The notes beneath the pieces are model-generated. The model was given only the letters and a program-made list of their open reading frames with translations. It was not told the origin of the DNA and did no database searches. From an uncultured archaeon (GTDB lineage: Archaea > Asgardarchaeota > Lokiarchaeia > Sigyniarchaeales > SOKP01), in contig CAZDTP010000021.1 in the NCBI GenBank assembly GCA_964508365.1, positions 1-13,197 on the forward strand: a stretch of 13,197 bases of DNA. The letters are read 5' to 3'. A program made the position numbers and the translations under genes. Of the stretch, positions 1 through 7,117 are shown in pieces; the first letter of the stretch is position 1, and every line of letters starts with the position of its first letter.

Positions 1-1827
1 TTCGATTTCAGGAATGGAACTTGACGCATTATGAATATCACTTAATTTGTTTTCATTTTTTTCTGCAATTTCTGTAGCATCGTCAATTGAGTTCATAAAT
101 TGAAGCGTAAAATCCGCTATTGCATCTTTAATGTTTTGTGTTGTGTCTTTTGTTGTAGCGGTTAAACTCCCTTGGAGTGTTTTTGCATTGTCTTCGTATT
201 TTGATTTATGATCTATTAACATTTCACCCAAATTTCGATCCAAGTCAGCTGACTCATCACCCCACAGATTTATCTCTTCAGTTATTTTATCGGATATATC
301 TCTTTTCCCACCAATAAATTTATCGTCAAGATCTCTAATCCAGTCTTCTTTAATTTTTTTGATATCCGTATCATACTCACTATAATGTTTTAAGGAATAT
401 TCTTTGTGATTATTAATTGCCTCATCGTATTGGCGGTTATGAGTTTTTAGCGAATTCTCTAACGAGTCTTTCAGCTTTATCGTGGTATCAGAGCAATCTT
501 TTACTCCATTTTGTAAAGTACTATCTATTTCACCTGACATGTCGGTTGCTAGCGTTTCTAATTGCACATTTATTGTTTCTTGAGCTTTATGGTCAAGTTC
601 TGTGGTTTCTGTTACGACATTATCGTTCTCTTTTGTCATTAAATCATTTACTTCTGTTTTCAACAAATCTCTGGTCTCTCTTGTATTTTTTATGTAATCT
701 TCACTTGTTTTTGTAAAATCCGCTTTCATTGGTTCAGTATAGGTTAAAATGTTTTGAATTGTAGTTTCGTGTCGCGCTTTGTACTTTTTCTTCTTTCCCA
801 TCCAGAAAAACCCCTTTTTGCCCATTTCCTCTGTAAAATCTGTAAACCTATTGGCATGCTCAAGTAAGTTATCAATAAGCGTTAAATTCATGCTTTTAAA
901 ATCGTTGGTTTGATCTGTTAATATTCTGTATCTTTCATCGACTGTAGCTTTTAAGTTAGTTTGAAGCGTATCAGTCGTATTTTTAAGATGGTTTAAATGC
1001 TCTTTTAACAAGTTAGAAATCCTTTCTTTAAGATCAACTACAATTTTATCCATCCGTTCTAAATACTTTTCGAGTATTTGTTCCATTCTTGGTTTAAGAT
1101 CGTTTGCAATAGTCTGATGTCTATCGACATGATCATCTAAGTTACTTTTTAATTCTTTTTCTAAATCCTCAACTCTTTTGGTAAAATCAGATAAAAGTTC
1201 TGCAATCAAGCTAGTTAAATCATTTTTTGCTTTATTAACGGTAGATTCGTTTTCATTTACTCTAGTATCGCAAATATTTTTGTTATTAGAGTTTAGAGTT
1301 TCCATAATGGAATGTAGATTTTCTTCTAAAGTCTTTGAAGTGTCAGTAAAACGATTTCTCGAGCTATTTATCCTCTCTCTTTTATTGTTATTCTTAGTAT
1401 CCGAATCTCCAAAAAATTGACTAATTTGATCTTCTACCGCAGTTGCCACTTCGTTAATGCTTTTATCTTGAATCGCTTCTAATTTCTCAAATCGATTTGA
1501 TTGATCAGTTAATATAGAATCTTTAATCTTCCCAATCTCGTCCCGGAATATTTTTGACTCTCCTATGTAAAGTTCAAAGAAAGGTTCTAATGGAATGAAT
1601 CTGTCTACTATTCCTGTTACTTTTTTAAGAAAGCCTTTCTCTACTAACCAATTAGTAATATCCAAAACACCCTCGTATGTTATTTCCGGGTGTGCTTCTG
1701 CTAAGGACAAATATACTTCAGATGAAGTTGCTCTTGGAACTCTTAGATATACGATGTATACATTAATCTGTTCTTCAGTGAAACCATATCGAGTGAAAAT
1801 TTCTTTCGTGAATTCTTTTAAGCTCAT
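1..1827 (-). CDS. TrmB-like winged-helix protein with a very long coiled-coil region (partial; 3' end runs off the window start)
   Basis: Manual translation of the minus strand from ATG at 1827 gives 609 codons with no stop down to base 1 (MSLKEFTKEIFTRYGFTEEQINVYIVYLRVPRATSSEVYLSL...ASSSIPEIE). A GGAG lies 8 nt upstream of the ATG. Residues ~14-82 (GFTEEQINVY...WLVEKGFLKKVTGIVDRFIPLEP) follow the TrmB wHTH pattern. Residues ~90-600 are E/K/D/T/L-rich, nearly Pro-free and helical-looking. Confidence 0.9.
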   Translation of the reverse strand, partial: MSLKEFTKEIFTRYGFTEEQINVYIVYLRVPRATSSEVYLSLAEAHPEITYEGVLDITNWLVEKGFLKKVTGIVDRFIPLEPFFELYIGESKIFRDEIGKIKDSILTDQSNRFEKLEAIQDKSINEVATAVEDQISQFFGDSDTKNNNKRERINSSRNRFTDTSKTLEENLHSIMETLNSNNKNICDTRVNENESTVNKAKNDLTSLIAELLSDFTKRVEDLEKELKSNLDDHVDRHQTIANDLKPRMEQILEKYLERMDKIVVDLKERISNLLKEHLNHLKNTTDTLQTNLKATVDERYRILTDQTNDFKSMNLTLIDNLLEHANRFTDFTEEMGKKGFFWMGKKKKYKARHETTIQNILTYTEPMKADFTKTSEDYIKNTRETRDLLKTEVNDLMTKENDNVVTETTELDHKAQETINVQLETLATDMSGEIDSTLQNGVKDCSDTTIKLKDSLENSLKTHNRQYDEAINNHKEYSLKHYSEYDTDIKKIKEDWIRDLDDKFIGGKRDISDKITEEINLWGDESADLDRNLGEMLIDHKSKYEDNAKTLQGSLTATTKDTTQNIKDAIADFTLQFMNSIDDATEIAEKNENKLSDIHNASSSIPEIE

Positions 1828-2210: not shown

Positions 2211-2313
2211 TTATCAATCTTAATTTCTTCATTCAATGGGAGATTATTATTCCTCAATCCTTTTTATATCGCTTTTGTTTGTATTAATTAAAACAATTTA
2301 GTGATAAAAAAAA

Positions 2314-3006
2314 ATGAAAAAATTAAGTAAAATTCTCTTAGGAACATTTTTCCTAATGATAGTATTTTCAACCTTCATGTCATTCAATGTTGTCGCCGTT
2401 GGTAATCCTGATGTAACATTTGAAATTCCAGGTGACACATACCACAAACATATTAACGCTAGTGTTGCCACAATGTTTAGATTTAGACAAAGAACACAAT
2501 TGAGACTTAATGCAAGCGTAAATTTAGATGTAAACTTTGATTGTGATGCGTTAAGGATTGGTGATAAAGATTTTGCTCTTGAGGTTGAAGGCACTGGGGA
2601 TCTCACAATGAATATGACTTGTAGGGAAGAACAGGCAGAGTTAGGGTTAATGAAAGGAAATACTTATCAAATAAGAAATCGTAATCGCAATAATTACCAA
2701 TACCAAGAAGGATTTGTTCTCACATTAGAATGTAATGGAACCTTTACACGAGCAAGATTAAGTATAAGGGCTACTAACGAAAATCGAATAGGGCAATGGG
2801 CTTACTTTGATAACGCAACACAAGAATGGGTTAGCGTCGGTACAACTGAAAAAGATGGTTATTTAACTGCAGAGACAGCTCACTTTTCGACGTGGACAAT
2901 ACTTTTACCGGATTATACACTACTTATCATCGGGTTCAGCATTGGTGGTGGAATTGCTGCGTTAATAATAATCGGTTTAGTGTTCTACATAAAAAAGAGA
3001 AAATAA
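2314..3006 (+). CDS. Secreted, C-terminally membrane-anchored beta-rich surface protein with a GPS/ZU5-like HFS motif
   Basis: N-terminal signal-like segment (MKKLSKILLGTFFLMIVFSTFMSFNVVA). Five N-x-S/T sequons. W162...W172...H190-F191-S192, then a Gly-rich TM helix (~203-226) and a KKRK tail. Confidence 0.85.
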   Translation: MKKLSKILLGTFFLMIVFSTFMSFNVVAVGNPDVTFEIPGDTYHKHINASVATMFRFRQRTQLRLNASVNLDVNFDCDALRIGDKDFALEVEGTGDLTMNMTCREEQAELGLMKGNTYQIRNRNRNNYQYQEGFVLTLECNGTFTRARLSIRATNENRIGQWAYFDNATQEWVSVGTTEKDGYLTAETAHFSTWTILLPDYTLLIIGFSIGGGIAALIIIGLVFYIKKRK

Positions 3007-3024: not shown

Positions 3025-3043
3025 AAAAAATAATTTTTTTTTT
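3025..3043 (+). terminator. Putative T-tract terminator after the 2314 gene
   Basis: AAAAAA-TAA-TTTTTTTTTT (A6, 3-nt spacer, T10) about 20 nt after the stop codon. Archaeal intrinsic terminators are oligo-T tracts. Confidence 0.45.
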
Positions 3044-3089: not shown

Positions 3090-4343
3090 ATGATTACAAT
3101 AAAATTGAAGAAGAGATCAAAATTATTCAGTATTTTTGTTCTATTATTAGTATTCATTAATTTTAATATTCTAATTTCTCAAGTTTTATCATACAGGACT
3201 GAAAATATTTCAGGATTTTATACTCATGATAACATCTACCCTAACGAGTCTGTGAAATATATCTTTTTTAACAACATAATTTTCGATATCTCCACCGATT
3301 CTTTTATCGATCTTAATATCCAATACGAAAATAATATTGAAAATCGTCAAGTATCTTTTCTTATCAACAATAGCAACCCTATTTCCCTCAATATAAGTTC
3401 TAAACTGTCAATGCAGAATTTCGGAATGCCTAAAACGCCTCAAGAACCGAAAAAAGGCGAAACTCAATTTCAGTATCGATATAATTGCATTCTACGAATT
3501 CAAACTAATACCACAATAGAATATCTGACAATATCCAGTATTAAAAAGTCGTCATATGGCTTAAATCCTAATTTAGAATATTCTTTAATGTTGTATGAAT
3601 CTTCACAAGACTCTTGGGAGCTTATTGATACTACCGAAATATTGAATGAATCTAATTCAGAATATACTTTAGCTGGTTCAGTCTCTAACCTACAAGCAGA
3701 TACAGAATATTTTATTACTTTCTACGAGGTCACCAAAATCTTTGACAATTGGTTTTTAGTGATTTTTTTAATTGTTGGTGCTTTAGGAATTGCTTCAATC
3801 GCGATTTTAATTTCAAAAAAAGATTATTTCCAATACCTAAAAACTAGAACCATTCCAATTGAAAAGGGTGCGCATCGTTTAAGCTTAGAAGACGTCTTAG
3901 AGAACGAGAATAGGAATAGAATTATTGACCTAATTCTTAAAGAACCTGGAATTCATTTTAATGAGTTACTAAGAAAAACTGAAATAGCTGCGGGTAATCT
4001 TGTCTGGCACCTCGATATTTTAGAAACTTACAAGGTAGTGGGTAAAAAAAGGATCGGAAATTTCATAGCATACTTTCCGTATTATCAAAAGAATCCTATT
4101 TCGAACCTCGATCTTCAATTGAGTAAGAGTAAGGTAACATTAGATATTCTCGAAATGATCGAGAAAGAGCCAGGTCTTTGGAACAGTGTAATTACAAAAC
4201 ATTTTAAGGTTGACCATAAAACAATTCAATATCATATTAATAAGTTAAAGGACCTAAATCTCATTCTATTCAGAAGCGAAGGTAGAAAGAAAAAAATCTT
4301 TCCCAATTTGGAATCAGATTATTTTAATAACAAGGATAAGTAG
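3090..4343 (+). CDS. Membrane-tethered transcription regulator: ectodomain + TM + tandem winged-helix (ArsR/COG3398-like)
   Basis: N-terminal hydrophobic segment (~12-34). Ectodomain with six N-x-S/T sequons. TM WFLVIFLIVGALGIASIAILIS (221-242). Two mutually similar wHTH repeats follow: NRNRIIDLILKEPGIHFNELLRKTEIAAGNLVWHLDILE and VTLDILEMIEKEPGLWNSVITKHFKVDHKTIQYHINKLK. Confidence 0.85.
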   Translation: MITIKLKKRSKLFSIFVLLLVFINFNILISQVLSYRTENISGFYTHDNIYPNESVKYIFFNNIIFDISTDSFIDLNIQYENNIENRQVSFLINNSNPISLNISSKLSMQNFGMPKTPQEPKKGETQFQYRYNCILRIQTNTTIEYLTISSIKKSSYGLNPNLEYSLMLYESSQDSWELIDTTEILNESNSEYTLAGSVSNLQADTEYFITFYEVTKIFDNWFLVIFLIVGALGIASIAILISKKDYFQYLKTRTIPIEKGAHRLSLEDVLENENRNRIIDLILKEPGIHFNELLRKTEIAAGNLVWHLDILETYKVVGKKRIGNFIAYFPYYQKNPISNLDLQLSKSKVTLDILEMIEKEPGLWNSVITKHFKVDHKTIQYHINKLKDLNLILFRSEGRKKKIFPNLESDYFNNKDK

Positions 4344-5580: not shown

Positions 5581-6978
5581 CTACAGATTACTTAACCATA
5601 GATTGATCTGTGGAGCAAATATTATTAGCATCAAGAAGAGTATAAATACAATAATGCAATAAAAATCTTTTAATTTAAATTTAGATCTGATTGTAATACT
5701 CTGGCTTCGTCCATGAAATTCTTTCGCTTTTGCACGATAGAATGCTTTCAACCCTTTTTTTGTTAAAAACAACTTATTGTTAATAATTTCGATATAATCC
5801 CCATTTATTAGTTCAGTAATATATTTTACAGCAGTTTTTCCTCCTAAATTAGTATAGAAAAAATCAGCAAATCCCTCGTAATAATGACGCCCAAGAGCTA
5901 ACCCCGTTTCAAAATTATCTACCAATTCTTTAATCGTTAAGCTTTCTCTTCTTATGCTACCTAAAATATATGCAGTTAATCTATTATCATAAATCGTATC
6001 TGCGAATACTCTTATTGAAGTAATATCGAAATTTTCATCTTTCACCAAGATTTCTCTTAAAACTTCTATTCCTTCCTTAAAAACGAAAAAAGCAATAATA
6101 ATTCCAATAACAGAGTCTACAAAATATATATTAAATAACGCAAAAGTAAATCCTATAAGAACTCCAACAGAGATTCTCACATTTAATAGCGAATCCTTAG
6201 AATCGCTTAAGAGAGAAAGATTTCCCGAGGCTCTTCCAACCATACTTTTAAGCATCGCTAAACCTGCATTTAAAGCAACTGACACAAAACCTATAATATA
6301 TGCTTCTACAGTTGGAACAATAGGGGAAAGATTTAATAAAGCCTCAATGCCCGACCAAACAAGGGTTACCCCCGTGAACATCATCAAGCCTATAATTATT
6401 ACACTCGCTAACTTGTCTTTTTTAAGTTTTAGTCCTATTAAACCAACTATTCCTATTTTGAATAAATCTGTAAAGTTCTCGAATCCTTCTGTAAGCATTG
6501 CTTGAGAACCTAATTGTAACCCAGTGAAAATTTTCAATAAAGAAATGACGATTAAAAATATTGCTGTTCCTAACATAACTGTTTTTTCAGATAAAAAAAT
6601 ACGCATATAATGGGAAGTATATAGATTGTGGTGGTAGCTAATTTCAACTAATTTCCTGCCTTCTTCTGTAAGTTTTATTTCACCGTTATTATCTTCAATC
6701 AAACTCTTGCGTATCGCAATTAGATAATATTCTTTTACGTCTTCCTCTCCAACTATTACTTGTGATGTTGATGAAATAAAAAGGTTACACATTTTTTTTT
6801 TGATTTCTTCAATTTTGTTTACCCCATCGTACAAAAAACATAAAAAAGCGTAAAGAAAATTATTATGAGGTTCATAATTTGCAGGATAATACTTAACCAT
6901 TAATTTATAATTGTCATCCCGATGTGATACTCCATGCTTTTTCTGCGTATAATTAGCTTTTAATTCAGCAATTGTCAT
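5581..6978 (-). CDS. Cation diffusion facilitator (CDF) transmembrane domain flanked by two winged-helix-like domains and a final TM helix
   Basis: The core has CDF hallmarks: LKIFTGLQLGSQAMLTEGFENFTD (TM1-2) and GRASGNLSLLSDSKDSLLN...YFVDSVIGIIIAFFVFKEG (TM5-6). Both flanking soluble regions end in a wing-type LTxxG motif (IKLTEEG, LFLTKKG). ATG at 6978 is preferred; the ORF track extends to a TTG at 7017. Confidence 0.8.
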   Translation of the reverse strand: MTIAELKANYTQKKHGVSHRDDNYKLMVKYYPANYEPHNNFLYAFLCFLYDGVNKIEEIKKKMCNLFISSTSQVIVGEEDVKEYYLIAIRKSLIEDNNGEIKLTEEGRKLVEISYHHNLYTSHYMRIFLSEKTVMLGTAIFLIVISLLKIFTGLQLGSQAMLTEGFENFTDLFKIGIVGLIGLKLKKDKLASVIIIGLMMFTGVTLVWSGIEALLNLSPIVPTVEAYIIGFVSVALNAGLAMLKSMVGRASGNLSLLSDSKDSLLNVRISVGVLIGFTFALFNIYFVDSVIGIIIAFFVFKEGIEVLREILVKDENFDITSIRVFADTIYDNRLTAYILGSIRRESLTIKELVDNFETGLALGRHYYEGFADFFYTNLGGKTAVKYITELINGDYIEIINNKLFLTKKGLKAFYRAKAKEFHGRSQSITIRSKFKLKDFYCIIVFILFLMLIIFAPQINLWLSNL

Positions 6979-7117
6979 CAATTTTAAAATTCTCACAAGA
7001 TATTTATATATTTTCAATTAACTGATTCAATTTTATAATAAACCATTATAATCAGATTTAAATTATCGCTTAATTTAGTTATTTTAAACTGGAATACTAA
7101 ATTAAGAGTATAGAACA

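Follow-up and report, generated by a model that had tools for sequence, protein, structure and literature searches.

Domains of the GAIN, ZU5 and MAIN types cut their own polypeptide chain but keep the two pieces together, which allows them to serve as breakpoints triggered by force or by a ligand. ZU5, GPS and the Nup98 domain have been placed in one superfamily, with ZU5-like domains found on bacterial surface proteins (Zhang et al. 2012, PMC3482391). A recent preprint defines MAIN (Microbial Autoproteolysis INducing) domains as the GAIN-B-like domains of bacteria and archaea, and names B. subtilis YfkN and the S. agalactiae IgA-Fc receptor Bac as proteins that carry them (Brogan & Rudner, bioRxiv, 13 May 2026, 10.64898/2026.05.12.724683). 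Edman sequencing showed that YfkN is cut between F and S of an HFS triad; substitution S1346A abolishes the cut, and the fragments stay together. Several other MAIN domains behave like YfkN, and nearly all HFS-bearing MAIN domains tested were cleaved. The family was gathered in that study by PSI-BLAST from the YfkN MAIN domain. Its typical members consist of a signal peptide, a large passenger, the MAIN domain and a wall anchor, with an average mass of 158 kDa, and the domains are most abundant in Bacillota while occurring in many phyla. The authors know of no signalling role and leave Asgard archaea unmentioned. Here we describe P0001, a protein encoded in a 13,197-nucleotide stretch of contig CAZDTP010000021.1 from an uncultured Asgard archaeon (the window, which is AT-rich, with 28-39% GC). 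P0001 is probably a minimal MAIN-type domain, predicted to cleave itself, and its gene lies beside that of a membrane-bound transcriptional regulator, P0216.

The features of P0001, in window positions, are as follows.

2314..3006, forward strand: P0001 gene, 230 aa, stop codon included in the span, from the open reading frame list and its translation.
2314..2400, forward strand: N-terminal hydrophobic segment, aa 1-29, a signal peptide or signal anchor.
2416..2910, forward strand: beta-sandwich ectodomain, aa 35-199, GAIN-B/ZU5/MAIN-like.
2797..2829, forward strand: W162...W172 aromatic pair (WAYFD...EW), with W162 at 2797-2799.
2881..2889, forward strand: H190-F191-S192 triad, with F191 at 2884-2886, S192 at 2887-2889 and the predicted scissile bond F191/S192.
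2887..2916, forward strand: last beta-strand and linker (S192-TWTILLPDY-T202), which would remain on the membrane fragment.
2917..3003, forward strand: C-terminal transmembrane (TM) helix (aa 202-224) and basic tail YIKKRK; the model helix spans 202-229.

An earlier note on this DNA, made from the sequence alone, had drawn attention to the region from W162 to I226 (2797-2991), and translation of 2314-3006 reproduces both its residues and its span. The protein opens with MKK, a hydrophobic run and VVA-VG (model helix 3-21), a segment that is nearly invariant among close orthologues. The sandwich begins at residue 35, directly after this segment, leaving no N-terminal passenger domain. Downstream of HFS come T193-W-T-I-L-L198, P199-D-Y201 and a hydrophobic helix at about 202-224; T193, W194, T195, L197, P199, D200 and T202 are invariant in close orthologues. 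The ectodomain contains five N-x-S/T sequons. It also contains three cysteines, C77, C103 and C140, invariant in close orthologues and all outside the motif, so the region that had been called cysteine-free does lack Cys (none at 160-200), whereas the protein as a whole does not. With one TM helix and six cytoplasmic residues, P0001 has no receptor body of 7 or 11 TM helices. Its ends are those of a surface protein, an N-terminal hydrophobic segment and a TM + KKRK anchor right after the domain, and the best explanation of this layout is a type-I, membrane-anchored surface protein.

Conservation of the triad was examined in an alignment, A2, of 44 full-length relatives that are 21-74% identical to P0001 and have a mean column identity of 27%. 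Only six columns reach 90% or more: W162 (100%), H190 (97.7%), F57 (97.7%), S192 (95.5%), G182 (90.9%) and A163 (90.9%). H190 and S192 rank among the four most conserved positions, in keeping with the expectation that HFS is kept in orthologues, and F191 (88.6%) and W194 at P3' (81.8%) follow. The proposed Trp pair fared less evenly: W162 is invariant, whereas W172 stays below 75% and is replaced by Phe in other relatives. Among 72 pattern-found domains from 95 representative clusters, the triad reads HFS in 64, HLS in 4, HYS in 2, HFT in 1 and otherwise in 1; natural variants P0156, P0213, P0166 and P0180 lack its His. A lone H-hydrophobic-S/T tripeptide is trivial by chance. Because H190 and S192 are so conserved across diverse relatives, the motif goes beyond this, and, judged by the alignment, the HFS of P0001 is not a chance motif.

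The AlphaFold2 model of P0001 computed on A2 is confident (pLDDT 89.3, pTM 0.75). It shows a beta-sandwich at aa 35-199, HFS in a short turn between strands 183-188 and 193-199, a TM helix from residue 202, and no helices in the ectodomain besides one short turn at 79-82. Foldseek searches with this model gave no match below E 1e-3. The best weak matches are GAIN domains (BAI3, BAI2, CD97), ankyrin ZU5 and the NLRP1 FIIND, with GAIN-B at the top. These matches span the whole domain (116-142 residues), whereas the interleaved glycoside-hydrolase sandwiches cover only 79-97 residues, and the GAIN/ZU5-like fold predicted earlier is thus borne out. P0001 shares with ZU5/FIIND domains a beta-sandwich in which the cut, predicted in P0001, lies ahead of the strand that opens the next module. 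Neither the Nup98 autoproteolytic domain nor SEA/SEAL folds appear among the structure matches listed.

Several of the matched chains are N-terminal fragments of self-cut proteins and hence terminate at P1, which sets the register of the comparison. In the structural alignments, residues 235..382 of GPR56 (5kvm_A) fall on model residues 42..191, and residues 1080..1212 of NLRP1 (6x6c_E) fall on 31..191. The cleavage sites of these proteins are H381-L382/T383 in GPR56 (PMC13123842) and F1212/S1213 in NLRP1 (PMC9700037). The chains of GPR110, GPR97 and Gpr126 likewise stop on model residue 191. The CD97 chain, which carries uncleaved numbering, aligns over 302..540 with model residues 41..201, and, provided that the last strand has no gap, S192 falls on S531, the residue whose change to Ala makes CD97 uncleavable (PMC10841603). 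Because the cleaved chains end on model residue 191, the GAIN and FIIND comparisons agree in making F191 the structural P1 and S192 the P1'. HFS thus lies where both families have their scissile bond, in the turn that precedes the last strand.

Weak profile matches of relatives tentatively connect the family to MAIN. Pfam and NCBIfam scans of P0001 itself returned noise only, and searches of PDB sequences, by phmmer and with a family profile, found nothing relevant. Pfam ZU5 (PF00791) and GPS (PF01825) had no match in the whole genome at E <= 10, and no ZU5, FIIND or GPS profile was matched by the 44 relatives among the 25 most frequent of the 72 families matched at E <= 10. The YfkN-type and Bac profiles had no match in the genome, and P0001 is too diverged to match either. 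Relative P0157, in contrast to P0001, matches the NCBIfam Bac model with its W...HFS...strand region (aa 161-205 on 993-1037 of 1127, E 6.2e-5). This match sits upstream of the protein's own Loki-CTERM match and falls within the last tenth of the model, beside the anchor, which is the location given for the Bac MAIN domain (10.64898/2026.05.12.724683). The Bac model is matched by 4/44 relatives. Another relative, P0152, matches the YfkN-type model over aa 96-202 (1228-1334 of 1411), near the C-terminal end where YfkN carries its MAIN domain, with an E of 0.0068 that is not significant after 44 tests. On the strength of fold, motif and this sequence bridge, P0001 is filed as MAIN-like rather than under Pfam GPS or ZU5, and homology of its domain to MAIN/GAIN-B is very likely.

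The comparison with described families shows what is shared and what is not. MAIN proteins, like P0001, have a GAIN-B-like sandwich with HFS in the turn before the last strand, an N-terminal signal and a C-terminal anchor directly after the domain. Unlike them, P0001 has no passenger, its domain being the whole ectodomain in a protein of 230 aa against their average of 158 kDa, and it is held by a TM helix in place of a wall anchor. Its gene is also coupled to that of a membrane-bound regulator with two winged helix-turn-helix (wHTH) domains, beside which it lies and with which it is fused in some relatives. ZU5/FIIND proteins (PIDD, NLRP1, CARD8, ankyrin, UNC5) differ in being cytosolic and in continuing into UPA and death-fold domains, and P0001 does not match Pfam ZU5. 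The earlier remark linking PGF-pre-PGF domains to HFS strands also gains support: in two large Asgard proteins found by the family profile, the HFS-type end matches the C-terminal third of TIGR04213 (PGF-pre-PGF) with an E of 0.005. This suggests that P0001-type and PGF-pre-PGF domains form one broad archaeal group, although TIGR04213 is matched by neither P0001 nor any of the 44 relatives.

By analogy with GAIN and MAIN domains, P0001 would, after export, cut its own chain between F191 and S192. H190 would activate the S192 hydroxyl, an N-to-O acyl shift would give an ester, and water would hydrolyze that ester. The resulting outer fragment of about 160 aa would stay bound non-covalently to a 39-aa membrane fragment, because strand 193-199 of the latter would remain in the sandwich. 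We consider it rather likely that P0001 cuts itself at F191|S192 and that the pieces are held by this strand. Alternatively, the HFS strand could be a structural signature only, with P0001 staying one chain as a plain membrane-anchored surface or co-receptor protein. The structure matches are of medium strength and extend to non-catalytic glycoside-hydrolase sandwiches, no autoproteolysis profile is matched, the His is lost in some members, and the paralogue P0216 lacks the triad, all of which fit such a protein. The motif also recurs in every tandem copy and before domains other than TM helices, where repeated cutting seems wasteful; PIDD, for its part, cuts at two tandem ZU5 sites, which counts against this argument. 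A purely structural role is hard to reconcile with a His and a Ser in one turn that are among the four best-conserved positions at 27% mean identity, since packing hardly explains them, nor does it account for HFS lying exactly at the scissile-bond position of GAIN and FIIND. The earlier note had cautioned that similar HFS strands of bacterial surface domains may not be cleaved; nearly all HFS-bearing MAIN domains tested have since been shown to be cut, at F|S (10.64898/2026.05.12.724683), so that this point now favors cleavage. We regard the uncleaved alternative as somewhat unlikely.

Relatives of P0001 differ in what follows the domain. Tandem copies, two or three, each ending in HFS-x-W-T, occur in P0129, P0182, P0196, P0126, P0134 and P0220, where only the last copy adjoins the TM helix, and in P0204 the motif is followed by another domain. 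The juxtamembrane position emphasized earlier is real in P0001, but the motif is not confined to it. The classical MAIN layout does occur in other Asgard genomes; P0219 (locus L023, G012:C1:1868500-1872500), for one, has an FG-GAP/integrin-like beta-propeller, TSP3 repeats, a domain ending in NHFSYFAV, a TM helix and a basic tail. A paralogue subfamily comprising P0122 and frames of 294-323 aa in six genomes (G192, G198, G117, G071, G147 and G057) has about 75 extra residues in one loop of the sandwich; they consist of repeated C-x-C-x-C (CECKCQDECQC...) and may bind metal.

Many relatives continue from the domain through a linker into PGY/DGY, a TM helix and a basic tail, and this arrangement raises the question of how P0001 is anchored. 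Its PDY + TM + KKRK end could be a sorting signal of the Loki-CTERM type, taken off by a dedicated enzyme. No TM stub starting at S192 would then persist, and any HFS cut would do no more than free a domain attached to the surface, the function proposed for classical MAIN proteins. Weak anchor-profile matches among the 44 relatives (LPXTG-anchor in 15, Loki-CTERM in 8) are consistent with this idea, as are the PGY/DGY-type ends and the invariant P199-D-Y-T found at the same place in the P0001 clade. P0001 itself, however, shows no Loki-CTERM match even at E 10; its sole anchor-type match is to GG_III-CTERM at E 0.087. The exosortase/archaeosortase Pfam profile had no match in the genome, though a control showed this profile to be insensitive. 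Fused relatives continue past the helix into a regulator, and the helix there must therefore be a true membrane span. Enzymatic removal of the P0001 anchor is thus improbable, and a persisting TM anchor is the reading carried forward here.

The gene that follows P0001 encodes a second copy of the same domain.

3090..4343, forward strand: P0216, 417 aa, with an HFS-less paralogous ectodomain (aa 34-216), a TM helix at about 221-243 and two cytoplasmic wHTH domains.

The P0216 ectodomain is related to that of P0001 by BLASTP (E 9e-6) and by the A2 profile (E 2.4e-12), and its wHTH domains match Pfam HTH_HVO_0163_N (5.8e-15) and HTH_24 (1.6e-8). The P0216 model (pLDDT 90) has the same sandwich, which matches ZU5 and GAIN over 126-133 residues. 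The end of the GPR110 chain lands on P0216 residue 201, in a turn that reads S199-N-L-Q202, and P0216 therefore has no catalytic triad. A family-profile search of the genome found copies of the domain in P0001 and P0216 only. The two genes are adjacent in at least 33/39 genomes with a full-length match, and the pair is kept amid different flanks in distant relatives, at locus L007 (34% identity) and at locus L010, whose two genes have both retained HFS. In P0179 and P0133, the latter at a contig end, an HFS domain is fused through a TM helix to the same dual-wHTH module. Site-2 proteases are encoded in the genome, one of them on contig 25 at 40056-41090. A literature search found no paper on HVO_0163-type regulators or on Asgard membrane regulators. 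At L010, which belongs to a GC-rich lineage, a 470-aa polytopic membrane protein of no known family (P0218, 1560-2972) lies directly upstream of the pair; a metallophosphatase stands beside P0218, and one neighbors the pair at L007 too.

These data are compatible with a functional link between the two proteins, which is a weaker inference than cleavage. P0001 may work with P0216, the uncleavable copy of its domain with a TM helix and two wHTH domains, and P0216 would then turn the loss or rearrangement of its cleavable partner into a change in transcription. That the cleavable P0001 and the uncleavable regulator form a signalling pair is a tentative proposal. Where the HFS domain is fused to the regulator, what remains after shedding would be a short stub suited to a site-2 protease, as in RsgI/SEAL proteins. 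The SEA/SEAL domains of mucins and of the RsgI anti-sigma factors of Clostridia resemble what is proposed for P0001 in that self-cleavage takes place in an inter-strand turn with the fragments held together. In RsgI, moreover, the juxtamembrane site lies upstream of intramembrane proteolysis and a transcription output. Their fold is unrelated to that of P0001, and the output of RsgI is an anti-sigma factor in place of a wHTH regulator. A full transmembrane signalling device, in which the P0001 sensor controls the membrane-tethered dual-wHTH factor and, in fused relatives, shedding licenses intramembrane proteolysis and release of the regulator in a Notch- or RsgI-like manner, is possible and on balance doubtful.

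The distribution of the family bears on its relation to eukaryotic receptors. Homologues of P0001 come from Lokiarchaeota/Promethearchaeota and Thorarchaeota assemblies, and its orthologues from Lokiarchaeota/Promethearchaeota, which settles the previously conditional assignment to an Asgard host. Near-length homologues number 319, the best 120 of which are at least 70% identical. A HMMER scan of 1.84 billion representatives yielded only 95 clusters, and the family is therefore small; an ESM Atlas search returned only P0001's own Asgard clusters, and longer relatives were absent from the matches listed in a family-profile search, which is weak evidence. Among 201 sampled Asgard genomes, the profile was matched in 36/40 of P0001's own family, in 3/3 of a sister family and sporadically elsewhere. 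P0001 is thus a near-universal gene of one Lokiarchaeial family.

P0001 might be seen as directly ancestral to the eukaryotic GAIN domain and to signalling by tethered agonists, given its Asgard host, GAIN-B as the top structural match, and a membrane-proximal position and P3' aromatic that resemble a Stachel. GAIN-B/GPS domains of adhesion GPCRs and polycystin-1 do share with P0001 an H-hydrophobic-S/T at the same turn, next to the membrane, and an aromatic at P3' followed by a hydrophobic run. P0001, however, lacks the helical GAIN-A subdomain, the GPS disulfide cysteines and a seven-TM body, and it does not match Pfam GPS; the earlier analogy to a Stachel tethered agonist fails for want of a seven-TM bundle on which the agonist could act. 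MAIN domains are found in many phyla and most abundantly in Bacillota, which makes an idea of eukaryotic origins weak, and the P0001 family is concentrated in one family/order. Direct ancestry is very improbable. The suggestion that P0001 bears on the origin of adhesion-receptor autoproteolysis is unsupported, since with MAIN widespread in bacteria an Asgard copy alone says little.

The remaining features of the window concern the control of the gene pair and its neighbors.

2238-2260, forward strand: promoter-proximal box GGGAGA...TTATTCCTCAATCC, partly palindromic, abutting the TATA-like element.
2261-2269, forward strand: TATA-like element TTTTTATAT, about 45 nt ahead of the P0001 start codon.
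3034..3043, forward strand: run of 10 T after the P0001 stop, terminator-like in archaea, assigned from sequence only.
5581-7017, reverse strand: core of a cation-diffusion-facilitator transporter fused to Sso10a/HTH_45-like winged-helix domains, an unusual transporter-DNA-binding fusion.
1-1827, reverse strand: long coiled-coil protein, 751 aa in relatives, with weak signals of similarity to ZorA and to apolipoproteins; the gene is divergent from P0001 and syntenic in close relatives.

The promoter box is kept in 11/12 orthologous upstream regions, where the remaining intergenic DNA is unalignable, and at locus L012 its core is a perfect 7+7 palindrome. Its exact 14-mer is unique in the genome; three matches with one mismatch are intragenic and occur at the control rate. 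No copy was found ahead of the P0216 gene, and the 14-mer genome search did not confirm a wider regulon. The box is a candidate operator and could serve the neighboring wHTH regulator. All 12 of 12 orthologous loci have 9-11 T in a row after the stop codon, and because such a run is terminator-like, the P0001 and P0216 genes may not share one transcript. A conserved AATTGGATTA lies just ahead of the regulator start codon in several loci.

So far, the only use known for microbial GAIN-like domains is the release of large enzymes and adhesins at the cell surface. What is new in P0001 is a domain stripped to its core and wired to a membrane-bound transcription factor, beside whose gene its own is conserved and with which it is fused in some relatives. 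If the two proteins do form a signalling pair, a prokaryotic GAIN-like domain would for the first time have a role in cis-signalling, and it would have it in the archaea nearest to eukaryotes. If both cleavage and coupling hold, animals would not have invented the link between autoproteolysis and transmembrane signals, and Asgard archaea would offer a very small experimental model of it.
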